NCBI GenBank assembly: GCA_050011875.1
Contig: JBEKIG010000008.1
Coordinates: forward strand, 1-64,000
DNA from: Nitrososphaeria archaeon
GTDB lineage: Archaea; Thermoproteota; Nitrososphaeria; JACIWG01
Direction: 5' to 3'
DNA length: 64,000 bases
This document shows, one piece after another, positions 8,538 to 29,135 of this stretch. The translations under genes and the position numbers were made by a program. The notes beneath the pieces are model-generated. The model worked only from the letters and a program-made list of their open reading frames with translations. It made no database searches and had not been told where the DNA came from. Position 1 is the stretch's first letter, and every line of letters starts with the position of its first letter.

Positions 8538-10385
8538 TTAAACACCTTCTTCTAGGGTGACGAGTTTCTCCAAAGTTGGAATTGTGAAGTCTAAGCCGAG
8601 TCTTCTCAGGGTATTCTTCGTCGGGATGCCGTGCTCGTCGCAACCCCTAGCCTTATACCAAGCCTGTTTGTCTTCTACGAACTTCTTCCTATCGTATATG
8701 GCCGCAGGCGTTCCTGCATTAGGTCCGAGGGTTAAAGGTTCCTCGAAGACTCTCTCAGGTAGGACATCATCTCTGTCTGGTCTAAGGCCTTCCCTGATGT
8801 TCCAAGCCCTTTCTAGGATGATTATCCTATTTGCTACGAGATCGAATTCACTCTGACTTGCAATGAGGTCCCAGCCCGTAGCTGCCTTCAAAGTCTTTGA
8901 AAGAGTTCCCAAGTCTATGACGGCTGTTCCGAAGGCTAAATGGTGGGTGCAGATTGTCAGGGAGTCGCTTATAGCAATCTTATCTTGCCCCTCGATGGTC
9001 GGTCCGTAGAGGTGGACTCCTCCATGGTCGGACATGACGTAGCAGAAGGTTTCCCTCTGGTCTCTATTATTTCCAACGCCTCCGACGCCCCATTCTACGC
9101 CTTTGCATTGCATAGCGAACTTCTCAGAGCCTTTACCGACCTTCTCAGAAGCGATTCTGATTCCTTCAGCTAGAAGGTCGCCTATACCTTCTCTGCGCAC
9201 TATCTTCTTAGTCATCTCGAACATCGCTGGAACATTTCCCCAAGTCAGATCGACTCCGCCTAAATCCTCCTTTGATAGGATTCCTTTCTCATAGCATTCC
9301 ATAGTCCATGAAAGCGTGTTTCCAAGGGAAATGGAGTCAAGACCCATAGCATCTAAGAAGGAACTTAAAGCGTAAACGCCGTTGGGATCAGTTATCATGC
9401 AGTTGGGGTGAAGCAGACATGTAGAATCATAGTCGGGAATGTCGAATGTTCCTGCCCAAGGTCCTTCCCTGATGATTCCTAACTGGTTACAGGGAGTTGG
9501 ACAGCCATAGCAGCTTCTATTCTTAACTCGACAGCGATTCTCAAACTGGAGGGGACCTCCCTTCTCAATGTCATCTCCCCAATAGGCTTCCCTCCAATTC
9601 TTCAAAGGACCAGTTGACGAGTCACTTGAGGAGATATTCGCCGTAGTGGATCCCCATCTCCGCCTAGTGTAGACAGTGCTAGGCTCTCTCAGAAGTTTGA
9701 TCGCGGCCTCCTCCATTGCCAGACAGGTCTCAGGATCATCCATAGGAATGTCTTGAGTGCCTCTCACAGCTATGGCCTTTAGCTTCTTCGAACCCATAAC
9801 TGTGCCTGCCCCGCATCGTGAGGCTGAGTAGAAGAACTCCTGATTCACACATGCGTATCTTACTAGGTTCTCTCATGCTGGACCTATCGAGAGAACGCGA
9901 GCGAAAGGATCGGTCTCCTCCTTAACTTTCACTTCTGTCTCAAAGATCGTTCTTCCCCATAGGTGCCTAGCACTTCTTAATTCCACATCATCGTCCTTTA
10001 TGTACAGGTACACTGGCTCAGAGGACTTGCCTTCAACAATTATACCGTCGTAGCCAGCGAACTTTAGTTCTGGACTGAAGTTCCCTCCGGTTGCAGTGTG
10101 ACCCATCAAGTTCAATCCTGTACTCGTCGAGGTGAGGGGCGACTTGAACCTGATTATTGTCCTGTTTCCACTTAGGATACCTGTCAAAGGACCGCCGAAG
10201 AGCATCAGTAAATTTTCTGGGCTCAAAGCTCCAGTTTCAGGCTTCAAGCGATCCCAAAGGAGCTTGTTCATGAGTCCACGACCACCAATAAACTTCCTAG
10301 CATCATCATGGTTCAGAGGAGTCTTCTTGATAGAACCCTTACTCAAGTTTACTTCCAGAATCTTTCCAGCATATCCACCAACCAT
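8538..10385 (-). pseudogene. AOR-family oxidoreductase interrupted by one in-frame TGA (9873-9875)
   Basis: ORFs 9873..10385 and 8538..9848 are in the same frame; read-through gives SIGPA*ENLVRYAC...GAGTVMGSKKLKAI, whereas the paralogues have GVAGENLV and GPAGENRC. Confidence 0.85.
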
Positions 10386-10402
10386 TCTTCATCATCCTCC
10401 TT

Positions 10403-10927
10403 TCAATCTATCTCCTTCTTCACGGGATAGAACTGGTCTGTGATCTGCTTCGCTATAACTTCAGGAGGCTTCGCCAATCGCTTTGGAAATCTTGAAATCG
10501 AGAAGTAGTGAAGGACATCGGATGGACAGTATTTTACGCATTGAGGATCACCGCTGCATTGATCGCATATTTGAGCTATACCCTTGCTTGGATGGAATGT
10601 TATTCGTCCACCCCTTCCACTGTCGAGGCAAGCCTGATTGCAGGCTTTGCAGCCAGTGCAGAGGACTTCATCAACATTCATTAGAAAAGTCTTAGTGTCG
10701 TAGGTGAGGGCTTTTGTAGGACAGGCTCCGACGCATGGACGATCTTCGCAATATTGACATACTATGGGAACGTCTATAGGTCCAGGATAGAATTGGTAGA
10801 CTCTTATCCTAGAATACGCGGGGTTAAGTCGTTTCTCATGCTTTATGGCGCACATCTTCTCGCATATTCGACATCCACAACAGCCCGGTAGAGCGTGATC
10901 TTCATAAACTTGCATTGGATTACTCAT
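10403..10927 (-). CDS. 4Fe-4S dicluster subunit of the AOR module
   Basis: CxGCxxCxxxC, CxxCxxxxCxxxCP, CTGCKAC and CDQC...CVKYCP motifs; 17 nt upstream of AOR. Confidence 0.9.
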   Translation of the reverse strand: MSNPMQVYEDHALPGCCGCRICEKMCAIKHEKRLNPAYSRIRVYQFYPGPIDVPIVCQYCEDRPCVGACPTKALTYDTKTFLMNVDEVLCTGCKACNQACLDSGRGGRITFHPSKGIAQICDQCSGDPQCVKYCPSDVLHYFSISRFPKRLAKPPEVIAKQITDQFYPVKKEID

Positions 10928-11046
10928 CTGTTTTTCACCATAAAGTTTTTATTCACATAAGCTCAGTTCTTTTCGGGTTTAAAAAGATTTGCCATCTCCT
11001 GAAAAGAGAATTGAGCAGAGGTGGAGGGATTAATCATTTGGGGGAG

Positions 11047-11457: not shown

Positions 11458-12744
11458 TTATAACATACATTTGACTATATTCGTACTATAGAGACATTCA
11501 CAACAGGAGCCTTCTATCCTTTGGCAATCTATTTCATTAGAGCGAATATAGAAACAATCCAATGTGGAGTACACACAATCGCCACACCAAGGAATTTTTT
11601 CATCGATGGATTTTCGAGATTCTCTAAAGCCAGCATATTCATCACTATTCCAAATGTCTTTTACACTTTGACCTTTGACATTACCGAAGGCCATCATGCC
11701 TATGTCTTTCGCGTGATGGTTTACATATTCTGTATGAGGGTACATATACTCAAGACATGGCACTGCACTTCCGTCAGCTCTGACGACCATTACTTCGTTT
11801 TTGATATAAGGGCATACTCTTGACTTCCTGTCAGCGAAGATGCTGGGAAACTCCAAATTAACGCCTCCTTTCCTGGCTATTCTAGATGATTTCTCGAAAA
11901 CATCTTCTACTTCTTTAGTTCTATCAAGCTGATCTCTCATCTTTAGTAGAAGTGGCAGGTTTATCCAATAGCCTTCATTTTCAGCTTTTTCCCAAAGGTT
12001 CCGATACCTTTCTAAGTCAGCCTGTTCATACTTCCCCGTATGGGTTAACCCATAGGCTCCAACTATCGCTGCATGTATGATCTCCCAACCCTTATCCAGA
12101 ACATTCCCAACTATTTCATAAGATTTCCTGCTTGAAGGGATATAGAGCTGTTGCCCATTCAAAATCTGTGAATATACTATAAGGTTAGTAACAAGTACAT
12201 CATCTATTCCGTTCTCTACGGCAAACTCTATAAGATTTGGCAGGTCCTTGTAGTTATCCTTCATCAATGTCACTTCTATAGAAAGAGAAAATGGAAGCTT
12301 AGACTTACTCTTAATCTTTGAAATATTCACCAAGTTTTCTATTATATTATTTCCCACAGCACCTACTCTAAATTTCTCAAGGAACGAATGCTCTAATGTA
12401 TCTAGTGAGAATAATATCTTGTTTACGCCAATATTCCTAATAAGCTTGTTGGCAAGATCGCCTGTCAACATGGAACCGTTAGTGCTGAAGTCTATTTCAC
12501 CCTCATCGCCAAGTTGTTCCCTAGTTAGCTTAACGATGTCCACAAAACTTTCGTGAACAAGAGGCTCCCCTAGACCATGCAAAATAATTTTGTTCAAGTC
12601 TCCAAAAGACTCGGATAACTTCCTAAATGTTGAGAAATTCATTTCCTCTTCATTAATATTCCAGAAGTTCCGAATACAGTAGATACATTTGAAATTACAT
12701 TTGTTAGTAACCTCAATCTGAATTGCTCTAGGGAATGTGGACAT
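11458..12744 (-). CDS. Radical SAM/SPASM protein, tungsten-cofactor oxidoreductase maturase-like (Cmo-like)
   Basis: CNFKCIYC (CxxxCxxC); Cys-rich SPASM C-terminus (CPY, PWCGDC, CCECLY); directly downstream of an AOR gene. Confidence 0.8.
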   Translation of the reverse strand: MSTFPRAIQIEVTNKCNFKCIYCIRNFWNINEEEMNFSTFRKLSESFGDLNKIILHGLGEPLVHESFVDIVKLTREQLGDEGEIDFSTNGSMLTGDLANKLIRNIGVNKILFSLDTLEHSFLEKFRVGAVGNNIIENLVNISKIKSKSKLPFSLSIEVTLMKDNYKDLPNLIEFAVENGIDDVLVTNLIVYSQILNGQQLYIPSSRKSYEIVGNVLDKGWEIIHAAIVGAYGLTHTGKYEQADLERYRNLWEKAENEGYWINLPLLLKMRDQLDRTKEVEDVFEKSSRIARKGGVNLEFPSIFADRKSRVCPYIKNEVMVVRADGSAVPCLEYMYPHTEYVNHHAKDIGMMAFGNVKGQSVKDIWNSDEYAGFRESRKSIDEKIPWCGDCVYSTLDCFYIRSNEIDCQRIEGSCCECLYSTNIVKCML

Positions 12745-12803
12745 GACTCTGCACTAGTTATCCGCAACATACAGGTGGAAAGATAGCGAAAAAAGAAAAA
12801 GGG

Positions 12804-14651
12804 TTAGAGCTCAATTTCAAGCTCTTTCAACTTCTGTGGGGTTGGTACTCCATTTACCCATTCCCTGAGATTGTAATACTCTTTCTTCATTGTTTCCAGG
12901 TCGACTGTCTGTCCCTTCACTGGGCCCTCTGGCATGGGTTCAGACAGCAGACGAGAAGGTAGAGTATCATCTTTGTCTGTGAATCCATATTTGCTAATTA
13001 TGAAGCGCTCAAGGTTATAAATTCTTTCACCCATCTTCATTATTTCATCTTCTGTGAGACTCCATCCAGTTACAGCTGACAATAGAGATGCTAGATCAGA
13101 CGCACTCAAAGCAAAGGTTGTGAATAGACAGGTGACTGTAGAGTTCACTACACATGTCAAATCTTGGAAGGTTTTTGTCCACTTGGCTTTCCCTTCAGTA
13201 GTTAGTGGATCAATTTTTTCCGGGAGCCCTACTATTTCAGGAGCAATTGTATAGCCTGTCACGTGACAGCCTCCACGATTAGCGGTTGCATAGTTCAAGC
13301 CCATTCCTTTTACTCCTCGTGGATCATAGGCAGGCATCTCAAGCCCTTTGACAGTCATGGAAATCTCAGGAGCTCCAAACATTTCACAGAGTCTCTTTGA
13401 TCCTAGAGCTAAGTATTTTCCAAATCCATCTTTGTGAGCGATCCTCCAAACTGAATCAACTAAAGCAGAGGCATTTCCAAAAGATAGATCCATACCTTGA
13501 AGGTCTCCATCCTTAATGTAGCCTTTCTGGTGTAGTTCCATTGCAGCTGCAATTGTTGAACCGACTGAGATGGGGTCAAGTCCGAATTCATCACATAGGT
13601 GGTTTGCCTTTATGACAGCACCCATATCCATGACCCCTGTTGAGTTCCCCAGTGCCCATATGCTTTCATATTCTGGCCCCTCTGTGTGAAGTATTTGATA
13701 TGGGCCAGAGTTTACGGTAGTTGCGCGCCCACAAGCGATGTTGCATCCCCAACATGGCCTTTTCTTTTCGAGATATTGCTTTGTTAGAGTTTCTCCGCTG
13801 ATCTTGTCTGCTTCAGGATTAAATCCGAGCTGCCAGTTCATATAAGGCAAGATTCCTGCATTGTTTACAACATTGACTAGGACTGCTGTACCATAGGTTG
13901 GAAGACCTTCACCTGTAACGGAGTTCTTCCTTTCCTTTTCATAAGCTGCCTTAGAAGCCTCATTTAACTTTGCAGGATCCGCAATCGAAACATTTCCAGA
14001 ACCAGACACAACTACGGCCTTCAGCCTCTTCGATCCCATGACAGCACCTAATCCGGTTCTTCCTGCCGCACGATGCTTATCGTTCACGATTGCAGCCATT
14101 GGTACAAGATTCTCTCCAGCAACTCCTATACATGCTACGCTTACATTTTTCCCGCTTACAGTCTTCCTAAGAAACTCATCAGTATCGAAGACCGTCTTCC
14201 CCCAATACTCGGATGCATCATGAACCTCTATTGCACCATCTACGGCAGAGATGTAAACTGGTTTGTCAGAAGAACCTTTAATTACTAAAGCATCGAAACC
14301 TGAGAATTTTAGGAAGGCACCGAATTCTCCTCCAGAGTTCCCACTACCTATGGAACCTGTTAGTGGAGAACGTAACGCCATTGCCTGATATCTTCCAGGT
14401 GATGGGAAGCCTGGTATTCCAGTACCAGGACCTGTTGCAAATATGAGAACATTGTCCGCACCTAAGGGATCTAGGTCTCTTGCTGCGTGGCCTTCAGACT
14501 CAAATTCCTTCAAGTATTCGTAGAGAAGTGCTAGTGCGTAGCCTTTCCCTCCGAGATACTTCTTTGTGTATTCTTCGCATGTGGCCTTAATTTTCACTGT
14601 TTTATCAGAAAGATCTATTACACCAATTTTTCCAATATATCCGTTTTGCAT
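12804..14651 (-). CDS. aor: Tungsten-dependent aldehyde:ferredoxin oxidoreductase
   Basis: 615 aa; AAGRTGLGAVMGSKRLKA, CWGCNIAC, GPEYE, DEFGLD, YDPRG, NRGGCH; close to the classical AOR pattern. Confidence 0.9.
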   Translation of the reverse strand: MQNGYIGKIGVIDLSDKTVKIKATCEEYTKKYLGGKGYALALLYEYLKEFESEGHAARDLDPLGADNVLIFATGPGTGIPGFPSPGRYQAMALRSPLTGSIGSGNSGGEFGAFLKFSGFDALVIKGSSDKPVYISAVDGAIEVHDASEYWGKTVFDTDEFLRKTVSGKNVSVACIGVAGENLVPMAAIVNDKHRAAGRTGLGAVMGSKRLKAVVVSGSGNVSIADPAKLNEASKAAYEKERKNSVTGEGLPTYGTAVLVNVVNNAGILPYMNWQLGFNPEADKISGETLTKQYLEKKRPCWGCNIACGRATTVNSGPYQILHTEGPEYESIWALGNSTGVMDMGAVIKANHLCDEFGLDPISVGSTIAAAMELHQKGYIKDGDLQGMDLSFGNASALVDSVWRIAHKDGFGKYLALGSKRLCEMFGAPEISMTVKGLEMPAYDPRGVKGMGLNYATANRGGCHVTGYTIAPEIVGLPEKIDPLTTEGKAKWTKTFQDLTCVVNSTVTCLFTTFALSASDLASLLSAVTGWSLTEDEIMKMGERIYNLERFIISKYGFTDKDDTLPSRLLSEPMPEGPVKGQTVDLETMKKEYYNLREWVNGVPTPQKLKELEIEL

Positions 14652-14784: not shown

Positions 14785-15306
14785 ATGGAAACTGTTAGAG
14801 TATTAATAGTATATGACAGTAAGACCGGAAATGTTGAGACAATGGCGCACGCGGTTGAAGAAGGAGCTGAAGAAGCAGGAGCCTTAGTTGACCTGAAAAG
14901 GGTTGAAGATGTTGATATCAACACTTTTTCTTCTTATGATGCATACGCATTTGGCTCTCCTACACATTGTGGTACTATGAGCGTTAAAATGAATGATTTT
15001 ATCAACAACAGAATGCACCCAAAATATTGGGGAAAATTGAGATACAAAGTTGCAGTAGCATTTACTTCTTCTGGAGGACTAGGAGGAGGAAATGAAACTG
15101 TTCTTTGGGCGTTAATATCCACAATATTAAATTTTGGTATGATGACTTTCGGTATACCCGATTATGTTTCCAAGGATGTTACACTACATTATGGTGCTGT
15201 AGCAATAAAAAAACCAAACAAGAATTCGCTAAATGCGTGTAGACTGCTTGGTAGACAGTTGGTCGAGTACGCTAAAGTGGTAAAAGCTGGCCTTAACGCC
15301 AAATAA
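14785..15306 (+). CDS. Flavodoxin / WrbA-like NAD(P)H:quinone oxidoreductase
   Basis: YDSKTGNVETMA, GSPTHCG, FTSSGGLGGGNE. Confidence 0.88.
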   Translation: METVRVLIVYDSKTGNVETMAHAVEEGAEEAGALVDLKRVEDVDINTFSSYDAYAFGSPTHCGTMSVKMNDFINNRMHPKYWGKLRYKVAVAFTSSGGLGGGNETVLWALISTILNFGMMTFGIPDYVSKDVTLHYGAVAIKKPNKNSLNACRLLGRQLVEYAKVVKAGLNAK

Positions 15307-18008: not shown

Positions 18009-18243
18009 AGTTAAACGTAATGAACGAAAGGATGCCCTAAGAAATAATTACAGTTCCCCTTTTAGTGCAAGGTTCCTGAATCATCGCTAGTTTTTATATC
18101 AAAGAAATCAATTGGTGCAGGGTTTCACCAGCTTCCTTCAAGGCCGTCCTTCAACGTCCACGTTGTTATTCAGGTTTTGGCTCCATTTTCTACAGTCCCG
18201 ACACTATCCTCGCCGGTGAGCCTTAATCCTACAAGTCTAAGAA

Positions 18244-18660
18244 CTAGACCGATTTTTTGGCGACGATCTCGCTCGCTATTTGATCCATCGTTTTTCCTTC
18301 GGTATTTATTCCTAGATTGCGAGCAACCTCTAAAAGCTTGTCCTCAGTAGAGCCACTCGCTCCAGGCTTTTTGGCGACGATTTCGCTCGCCACCTGATCC
18401 ATCGATTTTCCTTCTGTATTTATTCCTAAATTATGAGCAACCTCTAACAACTTCTCATCGCTAGAGCTATTCCCTTCAGCTGCGACATTGACCACATTGG
18501 CATTTTCCTCACCAACACCTGATTGGGCTTTCTTAAACTCTTTCTGAGCCATGCCAAGTGAGCGGGCGAGTTGAGGTATCTTATTAGGCCCCCAGATTAG
18601 GAAGACAGCTAAAGCACCTACTATTACAGTGATCTCTATTGGATCCATCTTTATCGTCAA
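18244..18660 (-). CDS. tatA: Twin-arginine translocase TatA/E subunit with a duplicated C-terminal motif
   Basis: N-terminal TM helix, WGPNKIPQLARSLG hinge/amphipathic helix, EFKKA. Confidence 0.85.
   Translation of the reverse strand: MTIKMDPIEITVIVGALAVFLIWGPNKIPQLARSLGMAQKEFKKAQSGVGEENANVVNVAAEGNSSSDEKLLEVAHNLGINTEGKSMDQVASEIVAKKPGASGSTEDKLLEVARNLGINTEGKTMDQIASEIVAKKSV
18253..18459 (-). repeat. Intragenic tandem repeat with 114-bp period in tatA
   Basis: EKLLEVAHNLGINTEGKSMDQVASEIVAKK / DKLLEVARNLGINTEGKTMDQIASEIVAKK; the DNA copies are offset by 114 nt. Confidence 0.9.
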
Positions 18661-18853
18661 ACCATTTGGAGAGGGATGTATATAGGTCTAACGTTTGAAC
18701 CCGATATATTTGCAATTTTAGTTGATTCTGAACTTGATTAGACTCAATATATCTTGTAATGGTGGGTCTAAAATGATTTTCCCAAAAAAGGCTGATGAAA
18801 TGTTCTCAACATTGAGGAGAATCTATTGGAAGTCAAGTATTTTAATAAATGAA

Positions 18854-19801
18854 TTAGAGTTGTGCGTAAACTTTGCACAGGGATTCAAGAACCGTGGAGG
18901 TTGTAATAAGCCTCTTGGGATCCGGATAAAGCGTACCTGTGTCCTTACAGGTCCAAGGCTCAAAGCAGCCATTTTTGGTGAGCCTTATGATCGGCACACC
19001 TTTCCAGCTGCCGTCTGTTCCCTGCTCCCGAACAAGCTGATCTACGAGCTCAAGGACATTAGGCTCGCCCAATTCTGTAAATATAAACAGGACACATGAA
19101 ATCAGGAGGGCAGATTCAAAAGCGTTCTTGGGACTGACTCGAAACAGGCTCTCTTTAGTTTTAGTTTTGTCGAATCGAGCACCGATCGCGTCCAGAAGTG
19201 ACAGATTTACTTCGGTGCCATATAGGAATGAATCCCACCAGAAGGAGTTCCATAGCCCGTCAGCAGTTCTCTGCTTCAACACATATTCCATGCCCTTTTT
19301 TATGAAAGGGGTTTTGCGAACGTACTTTGTCAGAAGTGCCTGAAGGACGACAGGGGTAACGTCGAGATGGGAGACCCTCCAAGAGTCCGTTCTGCCAGTG
19401 GCGAGATATGTCGAGAAGCCTCCGTCACTGCACTGGAACTCCATCAGGAGTTTATAACTCCTAATCTGTACGTCAATCCCTTCAGAAGCCAGGAACAGTA
19501 TCGCGTAAGCCGTAGAGTCCGCATCCGATCCAGCCTCCCTATTGTACCCCCAACCCCCGTCTGGGTATTGGTTTCCTAGGAGCCATTTGGAGGCAGAAAG
19601 CGTCGAATCCGCAGTCCTCCTTCTTAGTCTGCCTGGAACGTGCCTTAACTTGTATCCCACGTAGGCAGTTACCCACGCGTCTGACCATCCGGGCGGCAGT
19701 TGGCAGTCCACCCAGCTTCCGTCATCGGATTGATGTAAGAATATGTACTCTAAGGAGCTGGCTATGGATCTTTCTACGGCCTCCTTCCTTTTCGCGCTCA
19801 A
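18854..19801 (-). CDS. Monodomain class II terpene cyclase-like protein (QW / prenyltransferase-squalene oxidase repeats)
   Basis: Five QW-type motifs (QSDDGSW, QYPDGGW, QCSDGGF, QRTADGLW, QGTDGSW) and SDADST acid motif; 315 aa fits a single alpha6/alpha6 barrel. Confidence 0.8.
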   Translation of the reverse strand: MSAKRKEAVERSIASSLEYIFLHQSDDGSWVDCQLPPGWSDAWVTAYVGYKLRHVPGRLRRRTADSTLSASKWLLGNQYPDGGWGYNREAGSDADSTAYAILFLASEGIDVQIRSYKLLMEFQCSDGGFSTYLATGRTDSWRVSHLDVTPVVLQALLTKYVRKTPFIKKGMEYVLKQRTADGLWNSFWWDSFLYGTEVNLSLLDAIGARFDKTKTKESLFRVSPKNAFESALLISCVLFIFTELGEPNVLELVDQLVREQGTDGSWKGVPIIRLTKNGCFEPWTCKDTGTLYPDPKRLITTSTVLESLCKVYAQL

Positions 19802-20865
19802 GTTCTATCACTTGACGGGTTTAAGCTCGGCTTTAGGTAGATACTCGCATAAGTCCTTTCATGTTTAGAGCCGAAGCCCACATAGCGGTGCAGGTCGACA
19901 TCGGTTCCACTGAGGCGACCTTCGGACATCACTTCAAGCGTGTTCAGATAGATGGCTGGGTCCACGTCTAGGATCCTGAGCCAGTCCAAGGTCTTTTCCT
20001 TCGCCTCTCTATCGCTTGCAAAGATGCAGTGTCCACAGAGCTCGAACTTAAAATCAAACCCTGTTCTTGCTCCGAATCCGAAGGAGCAGACGACCGACTT
20101 TGTGGGGTACCGGAGCTCTTCGCCCAAAAAGGTTTCGGTGAACCGCTTGAGGAGGTTGATGTACTCCTGGTCTGCGATAGAACTTATCAGACTTTCGTAG
20201 TATGTCAGCGTGTTCCCGAAGGCACTTACGTAGACCCTTCCACTAAGCTGACTATCTTTGCCGAGCGTCAGCGACATTCCAAGTGGCTTCATGCCCGTGA
20301 TGAGGGCCTTCTCTATTTCGTGCCATCGCTCAGCACCATTAAAATGTGAGACAAATGCATCGAACCTTGGCCACATTCTGTCTTCACGCCCCCACCTTCC
20401 GTTGATGTAAACCCTTAATTTCGGCTCAGCCGTCGGTGAAAAACCTGCCCCAATCCAGAACGCACCCGCAGGGTCCGCAAGCAGGTCTGGATCGCTTGAG
20501 GGAGCCAGCATGCCGAGGAGGTCCTTGGTTTCTGACACAACCTTTTCTGAGGAGTAAATGGGAGCGAGAACGCCTATGCGCTCTCTGCTCAGCGTCATCC
20601 GTTCGGCTCCAGATGAGCCCGGAACTCCTGCCTCACTCAGGAACTGTAAAGGCGGCCTATCGTGCCCCAAGGACAATGAAAACTGGAAGGGTGTTCCATC
20701 TTCGTTTATTCTGGAAAATTGGGGTGGCCTTCTGCCGAGAGGCATCGCAAGCGATTCCCTGCATATAATTTCATAGGTTTTCATGATCTGGGAGCTTGAG
20801 CGTTCTAGGCCAAAATGGGGGATCAGCTTTGTCAGTAATTCGCCTATGTAATCGTATAGAGACAG
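19798..20865 (-). CDS. ABBA/DMATS-like aromatic prenyltransferase
   Basis: SRINEDGTPFQFS (cf. DMATS DDGsPxEfS), KLRVY, GRVY, terminal YASIYLKP; frame is open 27 codons upstream of ATG 20784 to a CTG preceded by GGGGTGAT; ATGA overlap with the cyclase. Confidence 0.65.
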   Translation of the reverse strand: MSLYDYIGELLTKLIPHFGLERSSSQIMKTYEIICRESLAMPLGRRPPQFSRINEDGTPFQFSLSLGHDRPPLQFLSEAGVPGSSGAERMTLSRERIGVLAPIYSSEKVVSETKDLLGMLAPSSDPDLLADPAGAFWIGAGFSPTAEPKLRVYINGRWGREDRMWPRFDAFVSHFNGAERWHEIEKALITGMKPLGMSLTLGKDSQLSGRVYVSAFGNTLTYYESLISSIADQEYINLLKRFTETFLGEELRYPTKSVVCSFGFGARTGFDFKFELCGHCIFASDREAKEKTLDWLRILDVDPAIYLNTLEVMSEGRLSGTDVDLHRYVGFGSKHERTYASIYLKPSLNPSSDRT

Positions 20866-20904
20866 CTCTAAATCACCCCTATGATATACGTAACGATGAC
20901 TGCT

Positions 20905-21651
20905 TTAGCTCTTTTTTGACAGATTCTGCGCCTGCTCTTTTTGTTGAAGTACCACTGATGGCCTCTTGACAGGTTCACTTCGAATATTTGGCCCATCGTC
21001 GGGTTTCAACAGCTCGATCTTGATGTGTGAAGGAGCTTTGAAGTGGTAAAGCATACCCTGCCCTGGCTGTAGTTCGATCCTGTTAGGTTCGAAGGCCTCA
21101 CGTGAACATTCAACCCTTACTGGACTAGGGGGACGGTAGGCAACCTTACCGATCTTTGGATAGGCTACAACAATATCCCCTTTGGTCTTCGTAAGCAGGT
21201 TGGTGACGGAGTACGTTCCGGGACGTATGATTATCGCTGAGAAGATGTCCCTTTCATCAAGCTTGCTACTGTTGAACAGGTTTTTCCTAGGGTCCTCCTC
21301 CACCTTTTCGACGCTTACGTGATAACCGCCGCTTCCGCCTGAAACGTGGAAGACAACGTAACCCTTCGGATTTACGACGAAATGGATCCTTGAATCTCCG
21401 TTGTCTGGGCTGCACTTGGACGGCTCAGCCATCACCCCACCCAACTTAGCTAGGTCTACGTTCGCCTGCGCTACCGGGCTGTTCTTCTCAACCGTTATGT
21501 AGAAGGCTCCAACGATTTCTGTTCCCCTATACAGCACCCCCCGGTATTCGCCGGGTTCTGGGAAGCTGTGTATTATCGCTCCTAATATGGTGAGCGAACC
21601 GCTGTCCAGCCCGATCTGCGAGAAAATGTTCTGATCGATTGGTATTGTCAT
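20905..21651 (-). CDS. Hypothetical beta-rich protein with possible cupredoxin-like repeats
   Basis: HSFPEPGEY, RPGTYSV and FEPNRIELQPGQ strands resemble cupredoxin-fold segments without an obvious Cu ligand set; starts 2 nt after the preceding stop. Confidence 0.6.
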   Translation of the reverse strand: MTIPIDQNIFSQIGLDSGSLTILGAIIHSFPEPGEYRGVLYRGTEIVGAFYITVEKNSPVAQANVDLAKLGGVMAEPSKCSPDNGDSRIHFVVNPKGYVVFHVSGGSGGYHVSVEKVEEDPRKNLFNSSKLDERDIFSAIIIRPGTYSVTNLLTKTKGDIVVAYPKIGKVAYRPPSPVRVECSREAFEPNRIELQPGQGMLYHFKAPSHIKIELLKPDDGPNIRSEPVKRPSVVLQQKEQAQNLSKKS

Positions 21652-21653
21652 GT

Positions 21654-22562
21654 CTATGTACCCACCTCCGCCTGCACGGTCATCTCCTTCGAATTGATCT
21701 TGGCTGTAAGGTTTCGGATAGGGATCTTGACCGGGATGAGAACGCCGCTCTTAGGGAGGATCGGATAGGGGTCTTCGAACTCGTAGATCGGGTACTTGCT
21801 CGCAAAATAGTCAGAAATAGCTGTTTCGATCAACCCGAGAAGGTCAAATAAATTGCCCAGCAAATTCGAAACCCAGTCACTGATTTCCCCTACGATCCCT
21901 AGAGCACTTGTTATGAGGTCAATTACCGGTCCTATTATCGCCCAGATCAGGTCCTTCATAAAGCCTGGCAAGAACCAGAGCTCGTCGTCTATCGCGCTCT
22001 TTACAGCCTGCTCAAGAATGTTTCCCACCGTTTCCGGAATATCGATCGGATCAGCGTGGACCCAGATTGGGTTGATGAAAATCTTCCACTTATTTGGGTG
22101 ACCACCGTATTCCGCATCAAGATCCGATTCGCCTGCAACCCGGGCTGGGTCTATATAGTATTTCGGAGCTAGATTTGCCTTCACATCAGAAATATTCGAT
22201 ACAAGTCCGCTGAGGTCAAAATCGGCGCAAACGGGACCGCCTATGCAGACCTTGGGCAGAGATACGAGGCAGCCGTTCCATGGATCAGGTATAATACACC
22301 AGCCTCCGACACAGATTCCTGGCAGGTCAAAGCAGACCTGAGCCTTCAAGGTGTCGAAAACGACGTCGACGTTCTTTACCTCCAGCGTGTTGTCGTCATT
22401 CAGGGTCAGGCTGCCATCGTCCAAGTGGAGCTTGACGGAGTAGCTGGCGGAGAACGGGCCGAAGTTTTTGCTGTCCGACTTGGACAGACTGAAGTTATCA
22501 ATTACTGTATCAAAAAGCTTGCCAAACGCTTTACCTGAAGCCGCGAGCGTTATGTGGTTCAT
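21654..22562 (-). CDS. Hypothetical protein with a Cys/Trp-rich insert (possible TULIP/BPI-like fold)
   Basis: 302 aa; ATGA overlap with the upstream gene; CFDLPGICVGGWCIIPDPWNGCLVSLPKVCIGGPVC; long amphipathic helices; fold is a guess. Confidence 0.6.
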   Translation of the reverse strand: MNHITLAASGKAFGKLFDTVIDNFSLSKSDSKNFGPFSASYSVKLHLDDGSLTLNDDNTLEVKNVDVVFDTLKAQVCFDLPGICVGGWCIIPDPWNGCLVSLPKVCIGGPVCADFDLSGLVSNISDVKANLAPKYYIDPARVAGESDLDAEYGGHPNKWKIFINPIWVHADPIDIPETVGNILEQAVKSAIDDELWFLPGFMKDLIWAIIGPVIDLITSALGIVGEISDWVSNLLGNLFDLLGLIETAISDYFASKYPIYEFEDPYPILPKSGVLIPVKIPIRNLTAKINSKEMTVQAEVGT

Positions 22563-23377
22563 GGTCCCACCCCCATACTGATGAACGCTTTGAGCTGATC
22601 ATCCTCAACCGCAGGGTTGTTTGGAACAGGTGGGTTAGGTGTGGGCGAAAGCGTGATCGTGGCTATGTTAAAGAGCGGAAAGCTCAAGAACATCTTCTCA
22701 AACGGGATGGCCAGCTTCTGCCTAAGGACCAGGTTTAACGTAGTCTTAAGGTAGCATACCAAGTTCTGCTCCAGTCCGTCCGGCTTGATGTCGACGATAT
22801 CTAGTCTATCGACCTTGCCCAACAGGCACTCCTTGCCGAGTATCACAGTCCTTTCGAAGTGGCCTACTACAAATATGTCCAGACAGAAGCAGTTCAGCTT
22901 TCCCTTTACGTGGACTGGTGGCACTGTCGTCTGCTTATCCCCTTGTTGTGGTGGCACGACCGGAATCGTGTCAACATCCTTTTCTGATGGGCAACCGATA
23001 GCGCCGCATATCTTGAACTGCATCGCGAAGTGCTGTTTCTGAAGAGGCGGGTTAAGCTCCGAAGGAAGGGATATGACATTTCCAGGGTGAAAGTCAATGC
23101 TGGCCTTGGTTAGCTGTGCGCAGAAACTTAACTCTACCGGCGGCGAGTCAGCACCCAGAACCGGAATAGGGTTGCTCACAGTGAAAATTGGGTTACCGTA
23201 TTTTTTAACATCGGATGTGATGTCAACAGGTGCGCACCATAGTTCTTGGTCTGCTGCTATGTCAGAGGTCGCGTAATTGAAGAGTGAAGGCCGCTGGCGC
23301 ATTATGTGCTGGACTACTAAGTTAATTCCATTTTCGTTGATAGCAACATATAGGTCACAATTATCTGTTAATGCCAT
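22559..23377 (-). CDS. Hypothetical protein (possible TULIP/BPI-like fold)
   Basis: 272 aa, first gene of the operon; N-terminal DLYVAINENGINLVVQH strand-helix, long beta strands, helix, terminal strand; fold is a guess. Confidence 0.6.
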   Translation of the reverse strand: MALTDNCDLYVAINENGINLVVQHIMRQRPSLFNYATSDIAADQELWCAPVDITSDVKKYGNPIFTVSNPIPVLGADSPPVELSFCAQLTKASIDFHPGNVISLPSELNPPLQKQHFAMQFKICGAIGCPSEKDVDTIPVVPPQQGDKQTTVPPVHVKGKLNCFCLDIFVVGHFERTVILGKECLLGKVDRLDIVDIKPDGLEQNLVCYLKTTLNLVLRQKLAIPFEKMFLSFPLFNIATITLSPTPNPPVPNNPAVEDDQLKAFISMGVGP

Positions 23378-23407
23378 TAGTTTTCGGGTAATGTATCAGT
23401 ATCACCT

Positions 23408-23415
23408 TATTTAAA
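23408..23415 (-). promoter_or_regulatory. Putative TATA box of the five-gene operon
   Basis: TTTAAATA on the minus strand about 30 nt upstream of ATG 23377; an imperfect inverted repeat (AAAAGTGTC..GACATCTTTT) lies just upstream. Confidence 0.5.
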
Positions 23416-23749
23416 CTTTACAAAAAAAGTGTCAATAAAGGACATCTTTTTGGGTTTATTTTTATTAAAGCATAGTTATTATAAAAAAATAAAAAAAAGG
23501 AAAAAATATTACAATTTATGCTTCGCTATCTTGTAGTATCCTTTTATTGAAAATTTTAGCTCCTTCATGCTTGAGTAATGAATAGAGAAAAAAATTGCAA
23601 TAACTCAACAAGATAGACTAATAGTACATCTTTTCCCTTATAGGTTAAAGTTAGCGCGCTACGGCCATCTGGGAGGATTTGGCCAATTCTTAAACCCAAT
23701 TTTCTGTGAGAGCCTCTTGCCCTTTTAGATAAACTTCTATATGCTGATG

Positions 23750-23963
23750 CTATTTCAAGCTTTTACTCCACTTGCTTTAGACTATAACCGTCAAAAAGGT
23801 CGAACCTGTAATACTCTACCTCTCCAGGTGGAAGGTTTTCGATAGTGGCTTCAACCATTGTCTTAGCATTTTCACCGTTTAAGACACCGATCTCCATGAT
23901 CCTCTTACAACGGTTCTTGTGGATGTACTCGTTTAGGAATTAATGTGATCCGTACCAAGGCAA
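23750..23963 (-). pseudogene. Decayed class I SAM methyltransferase (Methyltransf_24-like)
   Basis: Manual translation MPWYGSH*FLNEYIHKNRCKRIMEIGVLNGENA...EVEYYRFDLFD...VE*; in-frame TAA at 23940 and 23763. Confidence 0.65.
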
Positions 23964-24129
23964 AGTTGACTCTTCCCTTCCTCATAGATACAAAAATTTA
24001 TTCCCCTTAGATCTTATCAATAACAGAGGACCATAGGATCTAAACCGATTGACGTGGATGAGGTTTAATTATCGATTACAAATCTTTTGAACACTTATAT
24101 AATGTATATCGGATTAAGTTGATTCACAG

Positions 24130-25545: not shown

Positions 25546-27336
25546 TTAAATTCCAAGCCTGTCAAGCAGTATTTCTTCGTTATTCGGGGTCTGTATGAAG
25601 GCCGGAACGTTCTTCTGCTTTGTCGCCTTGTAGGATACGAAAAGCCACTGTCCTGTATCAAGTTCGGTAGTCTTTTCGAGCATGTCATAGCTGAGTGAGA
25701 AGGCGTCCGCTATGACCATCCTGTCGTAGAATCTTGGCAGCGTGCTGACGAAGTAGCTGTGCAGCTGCTGTAGGGCGTTGACGTTCAGGTGCGCTACCCT
25801 CTGGGTGCAGAGCCAGCAGTGGACCCTATACTTTCTCCCCTGCCTCAAAAGGGCTTCCACGCTCTTGTTCGAGCTATCCGAGAAGTCACCTCTGACCGCC
25901 CTGTCTGGGATGAACTCCTGGGCTTCATCCAATACTACGAGTACCTTGCTTCTCACGCCCGATGTCTTCTTTATGCGCAGGAGCCTGTCGATGAACCTTG
26001 ACGCCGCAAGCCTTGCTTCATCCGGCTCAGGAACGTAAAGGATGTTCACCTGAGGGCTGTCCTCTCTCAGGACGAAGGATGCCAGGCCTTCTGGGTTCAT
26101 CGGGGCCAAATCAACCTCCTCAGGTTCACCTTCGACCTCCTGCTGGATGCCGATACCTGTGATGTAGTCCACCAGCGCTGTCAGGTCCACCTTTATGGAG
26201 GACATTCCGTGAACGGTCTGGGCCATGCTGTTCAGTATTTCTACCAGACGGCTTCTTTCCTCCTCCTTTAGGACTGAAACATCGGTTTTAGTCTCATACC
26301 CTTTTTCCCTGATGAAGTACTTGACTATGCTCTGGAGCGCTATCGTAGCCTGGATCGCACCGGAGCCCCCTTCGGACGCCTTTTCTAGGATTGACATTAT
26401 GTACCCTAACGTAATCGCCGAAGTTTCCTCAGGAACGCTGAGAGAGATCCTCTTCACCCTTTCATTGTCGAAGAGCCCCCTAACCTTCCGCAACAGCGTT
26501 TCTTCGCTTATCTCTTCCTCTAGGGTTTCCGGGATTGCCTGAGAGTTTAGGAAGTTGGTTACGTTGTTTCCGAAGTCCTCTGTAGAGAACACGATACCGT
26601 CCTTCTCAAGCAGGTCCAGGAGGTGAATGGAATATTCTCCTGCCACGTCGACTATGATGACCTTCAGGTCTGGCATGCCCTTTACAGCCTCCCTTATCAG
26701 GTATGAGGCCAGGTTGGATTTTCCTGAGCCCGTGAAACCGAAGAGGCCCGCGTGATACTTTATCATGTTGTCGAGCCTAACCGTCAGCGGCATGTTGAAG
26801 CCCATCAGCGTACCCACAGGAATACCATCCTCCACGCAGAGGAACTTCCTGACGGTGTCGTTGGAGAGTAGATGGACCCTTGAGCCCGTCAGCGGGACGA
26901 GCCTTCCCCTGCTGAACTTGAGCTCTTCGTTTTCCACGTCCATCCTGTAGTTGGTCGGAACGGCAACAACGTCTATCCACGTCTCATCGCTCTTCCCCCA
27001 GCTGCTGTCTATGACGTCGAGGTACTCCTTCCTTAACACCGTAGGCATCGCGACGTCCATGCCGAGCATCTGAAAGTGGGTGGGCCTGAGGGCGACGATT
27101 TCGTAAATCATGTAAGTGGGTTTCTTTGATGTCTGCCTTTCTATGCCCACAAATGAAGGCTCATGCAACCTGTCTAGGACTTCAAAGTCGAACTTGACCT
27201 CCAGAACAGCCACAGGATTCGCGATGGTGATCTCCCCTTCACGCATGCTCGCTGTCCTCGTAACCATCCTGTGGTCTCTTAACCTAGCTTCGAACCTTCC
27301 ATCGAGATCGTCAAACATTTCCTGTGGAGCGTTCAT
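25546..27336 (-). CDS. herA: HerA-like ATPase/helicase (DUF87)
   Basis: N-terminal HAS-barrel-like region, Walker A GFTGSGKS, Walker B VVLDEAQ, RQGRKY, TQR; ATGA overlap with nurA. Confidence 0.85.
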   Translation of the reverse strand: MNAPQEMFDDLDGRFEARLRDHRMVTRTASMREGEITIANPVAVLEVKFDFEVLDRLHEPSFVGIERQTSKKPTYMIYEIVALRPTHFQMLGMDVAMPTVLRKEYLDVIDSSWGKSDETWIDVVAVPTNYRMDVENEELKFSRGRLVPLTGSRVHLLSNDTVRKFLCVEDGIPVGTLMGFNMPLTVRLDNMIKYHAGLFGFTGSGKSNLASYLIREAVKGMPDLKVIIVDVAGEYSIHLLDLLEKDGIVFSTEDFGNNVTNFLNSQAIPETLEEEISEETLLRKVRGLFDNERVKRISLSVPEETSAITLGYIMSILEKASEGGSGAIQATIALQSIVKYFIREKGYETKTDVSVLKEEERSRLVEILNSMAQTVHGMSSIKVDLTALVDYITGIGIQQEVEGEPEEVDLAPMNPEGLASFVLREDSPQVNILYVPEPDEARLAASRFIDRLLRIKKTSGVRSKVLVVLDEAQEFIPDRAVRGDFSDSSNKSVEALLRQGRKYRVHCWLCTQRVAHLNVNALQQLHSYFVSTLPRFYDRMVIADAFSLSYDMLEKTTELDTGQWLFVSYKATKQKNVPAFIQTPNNEEILLDRLGI

Positions 27337-29135
27337 GCTCTTGTCCCCTCCCCACTAACCCTTAACCTCTTCTCCTCGCTTTCCGCCCTCATGTCCCTGT
27401 ACCTTCTTGAAATGGAGAACACCTTCTCCTTTCTTGCAAGGGTTCCAAGCTGGAGGTCGGCGACCCCCCTAAGCATCCCTCTCATCGACTTTATCTCCAC
27501 CTTAACAGCCTTGTCAGCGAGGTAGAGCAGCTGGTTGTGTCCGTAGGCTTCAAGGACTTCAGGATTGTCAGAGCGTGAAAGAAGATACAATATCAGGTTG
27601 TCGATTTCATTCACCGAAGACCCCTCAAAGTAGGGGTTGATGGAAACCAACTTATCCCTTTCAAAGACGTCCACCTTCTTGGTCAACGGTCCATCGTATT
27701 CTCTGTTAAAGAACCTGTCGTAGACGAAGACAGGTGACCTTGTTTCGGGATCGGTCTTAAACTCCCTCAGCTGGAAGTACGATTTGATGAACAAGTTCTC
27801 TCTTGAAACAAACTTCCTAGCAGCTCTTAAACTTATCTTCTCACCCTCTTTGGTTCCAATAATCGTTGTAAAGCACGTGTCATACGCGATCGTCCTCCAC
27901 GGCGCCCTAATAGAGGCAGAGTTCGTGGCGGCCATTATGGTAAGGAAGGCCTTGTCGTTCTTGAGGTTTGGCAGAGGTGATTTAGATTCCAACAACTTTG
28001 TGCTTGTCGCATAGGGTATGACGGACCTAGTGAAGTCTGATGCGCTGGTGTCCTTGGTTATCCCGATGACGAGAACCTTTTTCTCAAGAGACTCTTTCAT
28101 AAGCTGGAAGATCAGGAAGACGTTGACCGCATCGAGGTCTAAGACTGAGAGCCATTTGTTTTCTTCTAACTGTAGGGGATGATCGTTGCCTTCAAAGACC
28201 CTTTTCACCACCTGCTGGGAAGCTTCCCAGACCCTGTCCCAGTAGTGCCTAACCTCATCATTAACCTCTAAAGATCCCAATTCGCTGGACTTGAGCAGCT
28301 GACCCTTGTAGGCCTTGTCCATCTGCTTAAGCCTCCTAAATATTCCGTTAACCCCCTTTTCGCCTATATGCAGATCCTTGGCAAGCTCATTCCTACTGAC
28401 CCTGCCCTTCTCAATCAGCTTCTGGAGAGCGGCATAGAGCAGGTAGGGACTGCGCTTTGGAACGTAGAGCTGCCCCGGCCCAAGGACTGACGCGATGCTG
28501 AGGTCAAACATCGAAAGGTTGCCGTGAGAGGTACTGAAAGATGTTAGCGCGGAATCCCCTGACCTCAGGAGGAGCCTCAGGTCTCTTGAGGCAGGGCCGA
28601 ACGTACCCGAAAGTGGTCGGTCAAGGAAAAGCACCTTATTCCCTTCATTGTCTAAGGTCTTCAGAGCAAGGGAAAGCTCTCCGAGGGTCATAAGGGCGTA
28701 CGGGATCCTTTCAACAGAGCGCTCAAAGTCGAATTCGGTTTCTAAAGCTTGATAGGATCTTGTTACGTCGGAGAGGTCTTCAAGCCATAGTGGAACTGCT
28801 GCTGAAACGGACAGTCTGGAATCCCGGACCACCTTACTGAATTCAAAGGAGACTTCATCTCCGACCTTAAGAGGGGATTTGTAGGCTGTCGCACAGATAT
28901 AGAACAGAAGCATTTCAAGTCTCTCATCATAGTCCATGGAGCCATCGATTCCAACTGCAAAATTCTCACCATCACCTAGCAACTCATTAGCCATCTTCAA
29001 AGCCTTGTTCCCATCAACCTGCTTACAGAGCAGACAGGTTTCAGGATGGCTTCTCATGGTTGCTAGACGCTTTGAGAAGGTTCCCACAAGTGAGGATGTC
29101 TGATCCTTAAGCTTCTGAGCGATTAAGTTTGACAT
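27333..29135 (-). CDS. nurA: NurA-family nuclease with an internal HTH insertion
   Basis: VGIDGS, LFLDRPL, IGITKD and GHNQLLYLADK motifs; 600 aa; SRNELAKDLHI HTH-like insert. Confidence 0.8.
   Translation of the reverse strand: MSNLIAQKLKDQTSSLVGTFSKRLATMRSHPETCLLCKQVDGNKALKMANELLGDGENFAVGIDGSMDYDERLEMLLFYICATAYKSPLKVGDEVSFEFSKVVRDSRLSVSAAVPLWLEDLSDVTRSYQALETEFDFERSVERIPYALMTLGELSLALKTLDNEGNKVLFLDRPLSGTFGPASRDLRLLLRSGDSALTSFSTSHGNLSMFDLSIASVLGPGQLYVPKRSPYLLYAALQKLIEKGRVSRNELAKDLHIGEKGVNGIFRRLKQMDKAYKGQLLKSSELGSLEVNDEVRHYWDRVWEASQQVVKRVFEGNDHPLQLEENKWLSVLDLDAVNVFLIFQLMKESLEKKVLVIGITKDTSASDFTRSVIPYATSTKLLESKSPLPNLKNDKAFLTIMAATNSASIRAPWRTIAYDTCFTTIIGTKEGEKISLRAARKFVSRENLFIKSYFQLREFKTDPETRSPVFVYDRFFNREYDGPLTKKVDVFERDKLVSINPYFEGSSVNEIDNLILYLLSRSDNPEVLEAYGHNQLLYLADKAVKVEIKSMRGMLRGVADLQLGTLARKEKVFSISRRYRDMRAESEEKRLRVSGEGTRA

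Follow-up and report, generated by a model that had tools for sequence, protein, structure and literature searches.

The window analysed here is a stretch of 64,000 nucleotides (nt) from a Nitrososphaeria archaeon (contig JBEKIG010000008.1 of assembly GCA_050011875.1, positions 1 to 64,000 of the forward strand), and five genes on its minus strand, at 18854-23377, form a cassette. The cassette is self-contained and horizontally mobile, and it comprises two modules. Genes 1 to 3, referred to below as Module A, are a widespread trio predicted to bind lipid, with a split double TULIP protein as the putative product of genes 1 and 2. Genes 4 and 5, a putative prenyltransferase and terpene cyclase pair, are attached to a subset of such trios. 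It is tentatively proposed, with somewhat less than an even chance of being right, that genes 4 and 5 make a cyclised prenylated product which is held or delivered by the TULIP complex.

The five genes are co-oriented and lie head to tail, and all five frames are open in the window. Gene 1 (22559-23377, an open reading frame (ORF) of 272 amino acids (aa)) and gene 2 (21654-22562, 302 aa) overlap in an ATGA at 22559-22562, 2 nt (21652-21653) separate gene 2 from gene 3 (20905-21651, 248 aa), and gene 4 (19798-20784 from its first ATG, 328 aa) overlaps gene 5 (18854-19801, 315 aa, TTG start) in a TTGA at 19798-19801. The sequence reads as a TATA-like box, TTTAAATA, on the minus strand at 23415-23408, about 30 nt upstream of the gene 1 ATG and inside the stretch conserved in the same-genus genome G001; this box is the likely operon promoter and would provide one promoter region for the whole block. 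Scans of the block for sigma-70-type promoters and terminators gave no score above shuffles, as expected in an archaeal host. The block has a guanine-plus-cytosine (GC) content of 0.504, whereas the genome averages 0.4075 (standard deviation 0.031; 2313 windows of the same size), which places it at the 99.6th percentile. An earlier note on this DNA had described five co-oriented genes behind one TATA box, the ATGA overlap at 22559-22562, the 2-nt gap at 21652-21653 and a block richer in GC than its surroundings, and all of these features are present. The same note read the overlap of genes 4 and 5 as ATGA, where the sequence has TTGA with the TTG start of gene 5, and it was silent on the 120 nt between gene 3 and the gene 4 ATG, which are coding.

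A scan for the gene 4 family in one genome per species yielded 34 loci. All five genes occur in the same order and with tight spacing (overlaps or a few nt) at 26 of these; four others (L004, L007, L013 and L026) are cut by contig ends and are consistent with the cassette, one (L019) is without gene 5, and three (L023, L025 and L029) hold gene 4 alone. Seventeen of the complete loci are from Acidobacteriota, three from Actinomycetota, two from nitrifying Pseudomonadota and one each from Chloroflexota, Dormiibacterota, Nitrososphaerota and an unlabelled metagenome chromosome. The earlier expectation that the three then hypothetical genes co-occur with the enzyme pair is thus borne out, whereas the description of the pathway as archaeal is not, as the cassette is mainly bacterial (17/26 complete loci in Acidobacteriota) and the gene 4 family occurs in 3 of 401 sampled genomes of the window's class. 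At the three loci with gene 4 alone, all in Acidobacteriota, an intact gene 4 (about 9700-10990) sits at the syntenic site that holds the whole cassette in L024; these loci look like decay products, left by stepwise loss of the cassette. A 42-aa remnant of gene 5 is kept in L025. In another locus, on an Actinoplanes chromosome (L032, 8558-9300), gene 2 is broken, with residues 1-173 followed by residues 235-302 and one TGA, and the other four genes are present.

Horizontal acquisition, which had also been suggested in the earlier note, is supported by the GC excess, by the confinement of DNA identity with G001 to the block, and by a tree of the five concatenated proteins that does not track phyla. 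In this tree, the window copy groups with a copy from Conexivisphaerales (Shimodaira-Hasegawa-like approximate likelihood ratio test support 99), and both are long branches. Among 41 relatives, gene 5 is found only in the window genome and G001; the latter has the complete set of five, with protein identities of 82-96%. At the DNA level (blastn), the two genomes are similar only over 18824-23492 (4671 nt, 91%), the flanks are unrelated, and this sole common stretch is taken as the limits of the transferable block. Contigs of two sequencing runs bridge both block borders. Parts of the stretch lack coverage in run X3, and none of the public runs listed as containing the sequence is an RNA run. 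No terminal direct or inverted repeats were found at the borders, no tRNA in the window and no integrase-like family among ten neighbouring proteins scanned. The neighbours of the cassette in 10 diverse loci are mutually unrelated, and no sixth ORF of at least 60 aa is common to the surroundings of the cassette across phyla. Gene 2 is the most conserved gene of the block; identity to the window is 50-72% for genes 1 to 3 and 31-52% for genes 4 and 5.

The assignment of Module A begins with gene 2, for which AlphaFold2 (AF2) gave a model with a mean predicted local distance difference test score (pLDDT) of 79.8. The model is predicted to have the TULIP lipid-binding fold, in which an N-terminal strand and a long helix go with a wrapped sheet of long strands. 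In the VIA-wide structural comparison, it matched YceB with Z 9.9 (root-mean-square deviation 4.4, 157 residues aligned), BPI with Z 9.3 (5.2, 204) and CETP with Z 8.4 (4.6, 206), followed by juvenile-hormone binding protein (Z 8.2), P47 (7.6), Der f 7 (7.5), OrfX2 (7.3), Der p 7 (7.0) and OrfX1-OrfX3 (6.9). The top matches span residues 1-302 and are interrupted by Aha1 at rank 8; the nine best apart from Aha1 are all members of the TULIP fold. The structural matches include a juvenile-hormone binder and a beta-carotene binder. The best Foldseek match is BPI (E 9.1e-4), and the Atlas comparison gave CETP with a TM score of 0.54 and a P47/OrfX-like lead at 0.81. Gene 2 also has a hairpin region rich in Cys and Trp (77-112), and an inserted hydrophobic helical stretch at about 180-254, with a Kyte-Doolittle maximum of 2.02 at 206-224.

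The protein of gene 1 probably has a TULIP-like domain, and its fold taken alone is a lead. Its AF2 model has a pLDDT of 70, which rises to 77-86 in complex runs with gene 2, and its Pro-rich C-terminal tail is conserved and modelled with low confidence. The top five Foldseek matches are BPI (E 0.03), CETP, BPI, BPIFA1 and LBP, at E 0.03-0.07. The predicted complex of genes 1 and 2 reached a median ipSAE of 0.71, and none of three controls exceeded 0.00, with contact agreement of at least 82% between runs and a partner pLDDT of at least 76. In calibration, the mark for ipSAE was reached by 58 of 80 solved complexes and by 2 of 110 mismatched pairs, counts that apply roughly here, where own alignments were used. 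In the predicted interface the N-terminal strands pair, residues 1-12 of gene 2 with residues 2-14 of gene 1. In other archaea the two occur as one naturally fused protein of 590-697 aa, its parts joined by a Gly-rich linker, and a gene 3 homologue comes next. The fold matches, the complex score of 0.71 and these natural fusions lead to the prediction that genes 1 and 2 together make a BPI-like double-TULIP lipid binder in split form, and the complex prediction supports binding between them.

Gene 3 is the constant partner of genes 1 and 2. It always follows gene 2 or a fusion of genes 1 and 2, and its family numbers 654 representative clusters at E<=1e-3. Sequence searches with Module A gave little. 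Genes 1 and 2 matched no Pfam or NCBIfam family at E<=1 (LBP_BPI_CETP, OrfX-like and DUF4403 were unmatched), and the profiles of genes 1, 2 and 3 matched no sequence in the Protein Data Bank (PDB) at E<=10. The sole NCBIfam match of gene 3 is a fructose-bisphosphatase subfamily at 16.2 bits against a cut-off of 428, which is no credible match. PADLOC gave no match for genes 1 to 3 or for the cassette, and profile-profile comparisons among genes 1, 2 and 3 gave probabilities of 0.5% or less, with no detectable paralogy among the three. The five proteins have no predicted membrane-spanning segment except for one hydrophobic helix in gene 2. Genes 1 to 3, which the earlier note regarded as uncharacterised partner proteins of the enzymes, are instead predicted to be a lipid-binding module, a split double TULIP with its partner, that is also found without genes 4 and 5.

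Two known systems resemble Module A. The TipA/TipB operon of Bdellovibrio pairs a BPI-like double TULIP with a beta-sandwich adaptor, and a similar pairing in a planctomycete is noted in the same preprint (10.1101/2025.09.09.675085). The likeness lies in an operon of a double TULIP with a smaller partner and in a central-sheet junction involving N-terminal strands, as predicted for genes 1 and 2. TipA, however, is described there as one homodimerising chain, whereas the TULIP halves here are separate genes, or are fused in other archaea. TipB is a beta-sandwich and gene 3 (248 aa) is of unassigned fold; the likeness to TipA and TipB is one of description. The abstract and Discussion of the preprint mention no terpenoid enzymes. 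The second system is OrfX1/OrfX2/OrfX3/P47 of clostridial neurotoxin clusters, which resembles Module A in its adjacent genes, in its cytosolic, complex-forming TULIP proteins and in being among the fold neighbours of gene 2. The differences are the lack of a Pfam OrfX-like match, the lack of a toxin gene near the cassette among the neighbouring proteins scanned, and a different number and size of genes.

Gene 5 is assigned as a stand-alone, MstE-type monodomain class II terpene cyclase with an intact D-x-D acid motif. It reaches 45.1 bits against the Pfam family SQHop_cyclase_C (cut-off 26.1), and its family profile matched 8pak (E 1.2e-42, residues 9-311) and 8paj (3.2e-42), both structures of 361-365 aa, as well as MstE (8.4e-31, residues 7-312 against 22-364) and 6ij1 (2.9e-30). 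The alignment spans the single beta-domain end to end, without a gamma or alpha domain. The acid motif (D93-A94-D95-S96-T97 in the window) has D93, A94, D95 and T97 invariant in 25 sequences, and aligns with DADTT of MstE and DADST of 8pak. Five QW-like repeats lie at 24, 78, 123, 178 and 260; at least two were seen in 0 of 2000 shuffles. The earlier note had reported five QW repeats and a DADS motif in 315 aa and had likened the protein to MstE as a stand-alone cyclase, and both statements hold, the first far above shuffles and the second through the end-to-end profile match and the Pfam threshold reached.

MstE (merosterolic acid synthase of Scytonema; 6sbb) shares with gene 5 a single beta-domain, a similar size, D-A-D in place of the DxDD of squalene-hopene cyclase and QW-type repeats, and it is about 50 aa longer. 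The pathway of MstE uses a membrane prenyltransferase of the UbiA type, whereas gene 5 has a soluble, DMATS-like enzyme and TULIP proteins as its neighbours. Closer to gene 5 than MstE are the structures 8pak and 8paj; no relevant paper turned up when the literature was searched for the PDB codes 8PAJ/8PAK and 6IJ1. The acid motif of MstE is described as DxD, its site as closed by a mobile capping loop and its substrate as an already prenylated aromatic (PMC12414744). This last point bears on the order in which the two enzymes would act. In a reversed order, gene 5 would cyclise farnesyl diphosphate (FPP) or geranylgeranyl diphosphate (GGPP) to a bicyclic allylic diphosphate of the drimenyl or copalyl type, gene 4 would pass the cyclic terpenyl group on to an acceptor, and the TULIP complex would serve as the carrier. 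Among the matches of the gene 5 profile there are indeed synthases of drimenyl diphosphate (7xq4, 3.3e-16; 8zg0) and of copalyl diphosphate. Such class II cyclases retain the diphosphate, so that their product can serve a prenyltransferase as substrate. The nearest solved relatives of gene 5 are nevertheless MstE and 8pak/8paj rather than diphosphate-retaining synthases, and with the prenylated substrate of MstE in view the reversed order is quite unlikely.

Gene 4 is assigned as a divergent, full-length homologue of the DMATS superfamily of ABBA-type prenyltransferases. A profile of 56 members of its family matched 6zrz with E 1.3e-10, from 18-356 of 362 positions against 12-346 of 360, and also matched 4yzj (6.2e-9), 7w8u (4.4e-8), CymD (5.1e-8) and PriB (7e-7); a search with the single sequence reached only E 1.3e-3 against the PDB. 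The motifs DGTPFQFS (29), RVY (124 and 183) and YASIYLKP (312), which had been quoted in the earlier note, are all present. In the sequence alignment, the invariant residues Y126, R183, Y185, K246 and Y316 coincide with the strand motifs KVY, KVY and AYL of 6zrz. In DMATS enzymes, basic and Tyr residues on the barrel strands hold the diphosphate, a role that these five residues may share. Gene 4 thus resembles the bacterial DMATS enzymes (6zrz/6zs0, 7w8u 6-DMATS, CymD 6os3 and PriB 5inj) in its near-full-length alignment and its basic-x-Tyr strand motifs, and differs from them in its roughly 20% identity, its sub-threshold Pfam and TIGRFAM scores and a Gln at position 34 where 6zrz has a Glu. 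The family has at least 112 clusters, all annotated as hypothetical.

The proposed mechanism starts from what is observed or predicted, namely gene order, conservation, the homologies, the gene 2 fold, the pairing of genes 1 and 2, the fusions and the signs of mobility, and adds to these a presumed donor, acceptor, order of enzymes and role of the product as the cargo of Module A. Genes 1 and 2 would pair through their N-terminal strands into a BPI-like double-TULIP tube, and gene 3 would be an obligate third component that perhaps serves as an adaptor, like TipB for TipA. Gene 4 would ionise a polyprenyl diphosphate (FPP or GGPP) from the host pool and join the chain to an aromatic acceptor; the host genome has one polyprenyl synthase, on another contig. 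Gene 5 would then use Asp95 of its D-A-D motif to protonate the terminal double bond, whereupon the chain would close into rings. The product would be very hydrophobic, and would be taken up by the TULIP tube and either kept soluble or delivered to the membrane. TULIP proteins in other organisms hold juvenile hormone, carotenoid or sterol esters.

The combination of the two enzymes has a precedent. According to a review, NctPC is an ABBA-fold prenyltransferase fused to an MstE-like cyclase, which geranylgeranylates Trp in a ribosomal peptide and then cyclises the attached chain (PMC13290415). That ABBA prenyltransferases can be paired with MstE-like cyclases is therefore already known, and archaeal MstE-like sequences have likewise been noted in print (PMC12414744). 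The likeness of NctPC to genes 4 and 5 extends, as far as that description goes, to the placing of a long prenyl chain on an aromatic ring before class II cyclisation, as proposed for the two genes. NctPC, however, is one polypeptide that acts on a precursor peptide, whereas genes 4 and 5 are separate genes in all loci, have no conserved small ORF nearby and come with TULIP-like partners; this comparison, too, is by description. No relatives of gene 4 of 724-2065 aa were found, which is weak evidence, as the expected size of a fusion (575-723 aa) lay outside the search.

NctPC suggests another use for the same chemistry, in which gene 4 prenylates a Trp or other nucleophilic side chain of gene 1, 2 or 3, or of a peptide encoded elsewhere, and gene 5 cyclises the attached chain. 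Such a lipidation is unlikely, but it is the main rival of the proposal. The cassette has no gene for making or tailoring an acceptor, and one of its own proteins would be an economical acceptor; Module A, which is better conserved than the enzymes, occurs both with and without them, as would be the case for an optional modification. The narrower form of this idea, in which a polycyclic, sterol- or hopanoid-like anchor is attached to and cyclised on a side chain of the TULIP module, with Trp95 of gene 2 as the candidate site, is rather unlikely. W95 (in a PDPWNGC hairpin), W197, C77 and C112 are invariant in cassette-linked gene 2 and absent from 4/4 fused versions without enzymes, and a loop at 141-151 of cassette-linked gene 2 is also absent from these four. 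As a modification site, the cassette-specific Trp and Cys residues are suggestive and indistinguishable from general divergence, as 51 of 115 conserved gene 2 columns differ in the same comparison, which draws on just four archaeal sequences that are related to each other. Across phyla, 27 loci share no ORF of 18-110 aa at a distance of up to 1.2 kb from the cassette, so that no precursor-peptide gene adjoins the enzymes there, and a precursor could be encoded elsewhere. Gene 4 is nearest in the PDB to DMATS enzymes that act on small molecules.

Several observations weigh against the proposal that the TULIP complex handles a cyclised product of genes 4 and 5; they concern the individual proteins, the occurrence of Module A without the enzymes, and the state of gene 4 in this genus. 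The best VIA-wide match of gene 1, at Z 4.5, is weak, and gene 3 is of unassigned fold, its only named lead being cupredoxin at 0.77. None of the five proteins matches a transporter or regulator family in Pfam or NCBIfam, and none has an N-terminal segment that resembles a signal peptide by eye, with no predictor run. For gene 4, the ABBA barrel is predicted from sequence homology. Gene 4 matches no Pfam family at E<=1, Trp_DMAT included, and reaches 16.2 bits against TIGR03429, whose cut-off is 163.85. Its Q34, within DGTPFQFS, is invariant in the 56 family members, and the same column is a Glu in 6zrz (TPVEFS), which we take to be the DMATS catalytic residue that binds the indole N-H. If that role is right, the acceptor or the chemistry differs in the gene 4 family. 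The earlier assignment of gene 4 to DMATS/ABBA therefore stands as to full-length homology with solved DMATS enzymes, and is weakened by scores below curated thresholds and by Gln in place of the presumed catalytic Glu. The usual donors of DMATS enzymes are C5 units, too short for a class II cyclisation.

The second set of observations concerns the trio on its own. Gene 2 homologues were found in 15 of the 401 genomes of the window's class, of which three have the gene 4 family. In 12 of these 15 genomes gene 2 sits in an open frame of about 590-700 aa; four such frames were read, and each comprises a gene 1 domain, a Gly-rich linker and a gene 2 domain, followed by a gene 3 homologue (L044, 8605-11263; L045, 8511-11394; L046, 8830-11441; L048, 1961-4598). 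No prenyltransferase or cyclase lies near these four loci, and the profiles of genes 4 and 5 found neither gene in five of five genomes with the fused form (the four source genomes and G209), two of which are single contigs at 99% completeness. The neighbours of the fused module are unrelated to one another. In a sample of 301 Acidobacteriota genomes, gene 2 was found in three, one of which had no detected gene 4. Since genes 1 to 3 are present without the enzymes, a terpenoid cannot be their sole ligand.

These data could also mean that the two modules are merely co-transferred, or that Module A is membrane-active or a toxin accessory in the manner of BPI or OrfX/P47, the terpenoid then being an immunity factor, a helper or a product with no connection to it. 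Of the 15 genomes with Module A in the class sample, 12 have it on its own, and at three Acidobacteriota loci gene 4 remains alone where a relative has the full cassette. The fold neighbours of gene 2 include BPI and the P47, OrfX2 and OrfX1-OrfX3 proteins of neurotoxin clusters, and gene 2 has the hydrophobic helical insert. Strict order and tight spacing have nevertheless been kept at 26 loci through transfers over six phyla, the block has a single promoter region, and no toxin, secretion or immunity gene is common to the loci, with no PADLOC match; separate functions for the modules are accordingly a doubtful alternative to a TULIP complex that works with the enzymes.

The third set concerns the start of gene 4. 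Homologues of gene 4 are about 366 aa long and carry about 33 further N-terminal residues. The gene 4 frame is open upstream of its ATG back to the stop of gene 3 and reads SSHRYVYHRGDLELSLYDYIGELLTKLIPHFGLERSSSQI, of which the later part aligns with the N-termini of the homologues, as does LSLYDYIGELLTKLIPHFGLERSSSQI, the reading of the 120-nt stretch in this frame; the family profile matches the window from 20871. The 120 nt before the gene 4 ATG (20785-20904) are thus assigned as coding for the conserved N-terminus of gene 4. No ATG, GTG or TTG occurs in this N-terminal stretch in either the window or G001. A CTG at 20865, conserved in the two genomes, is preceded at a distance of 6 nt by a Shine-Dalgarno-like GGGGTGAT. 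Gene 4 may well start at this CTG, which would give about 355 aa (19798-20865) and a possible CTG-initiated archaeal gene. A contig of run X2, from another study, is identical over 19812-21859 (0 differences), so the start-less gene 4 is probably no single-assembly error, and X2 may sample the same population. In both the window and G001, genes 3 and 4 share a frame that is interrupted by one TAA. Stop-codon read-through joining genes 3 and 4 was considered and rejected as a general mechanism, as at least some other loci, e.g. L006, have different frames and own starts.

The cassette may be decaying in this genus. In G001 (L003), gene 4 has a 1-nt insertion in an A-run near codon 25 (about 9580-9700) and gene 1 changes frame near codon 205 (about 11650-11690), which may be early decay or assembly errors in base runs. 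In the strongest form of this explanation, the cassette is a decaying passenger here, gene 4 is not fully translated and no product is made in this genome. The conserved N-terminus without a usual start codon, repeated in the contig from another study, and the G001 frameshifts would fit this, as would the degraded copies elsewhere (gene 4 alone in L023, L025 and L029, and the broken gene 2 of Actinoplanes L032). The ratio of non-synonymous to synonymous substitution rates between the window and G001, however, is 0.2-0.29 in each of the five genes and reaches 0.38 in the 27-codon extension of gene 4; the Shine-Dalgarno-like GGGGTGAT and the CTG are kept in two genomes, all five frames are open in the window, and the frameshifts of G001 are perhaps assembly errors. 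A cassette that makes no product in this genome is thus very unlikely.

Literature searches found no description of the five-gene cassette, of a DMATS branch bearing Gln, or of terpenoid enzymes coupled to a split double TULIP with a fixed partner; the primary NctPC paper and supplements lay outside these searches and may hold related clusters. In this cassette, the chemistry of class II meroterpenoids comes together with tubular lipid-transfer proteins, two so far unconnected fields. Should a cyclic terpenoid be cargo of the TULIP complex or be attached to it, prokaryotes would have a soluble system dedicated to the handling of a sterol-like lipid, and if lipidation is true, the modification would represent a new kind of protein lipidation in bacteria and archaea that is spread by gene transfer. 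The hosts (Acidobacteriota, nitrifying bacteria and Nitrososphaerota) are abundant and little-studied organisms of soil and peat. The gene 4 family would be a new branch of the DMATS superfamily with Gln for Glu, and Module A points to a large family of prokaryotic double TULIPs, split in some genomes and fused in others, with a constant partner, as large as the clusters of gene 3 suggest. The five genes total 4.7 kb and are mostly without membrane segments, which makes the proposal directly testable by co-expression.

The surroundings of the cassette in the window include an aldehyde:ferredoxin oxidoreductase, a radical-SAM/SPASM protein, a flavodoxin, a methyltransferase, two amidohydrolases, TatA, a HerA/NurA pair and a thermosome subunit (Cpn60_TCP1, E 1.9e-188); the thermosome and HerA/NurA identify the genome as archaeal. 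The HerA/NurA-like pair (25546-29135) has a GC content of 0.51-0.53 against 0.41 for the genome and may be another acquired segment. Contigs of three runs branch at 23875-23971 and 18068-18254, which suggests strain variants just outside the cassette. Upstream of the cassette, a 43-codon ORF (MEIGVLNGENAK...) lies at 23765-23896 on the minus strand; it is probably unrelated to the cassette because it is outside the stretch shared with G001. The TatA-like protein (18244-18660, minus strand) has a duplicated C-terminal segment, EDKLLEVA.NLGINTEGK.MDQ.ASEIVAKK, and a form lacking 149 nt at 18359-18509 occurs among the contigs of runs X1 and X2, apparently a variant in repeat number. The radical-SAM/SPASM protein adjoins the aldehyde:ferredoxin oxidoreductase (11458-14651), with the flavodoxin at 14785-15306, and the two may form a maturase pairing.

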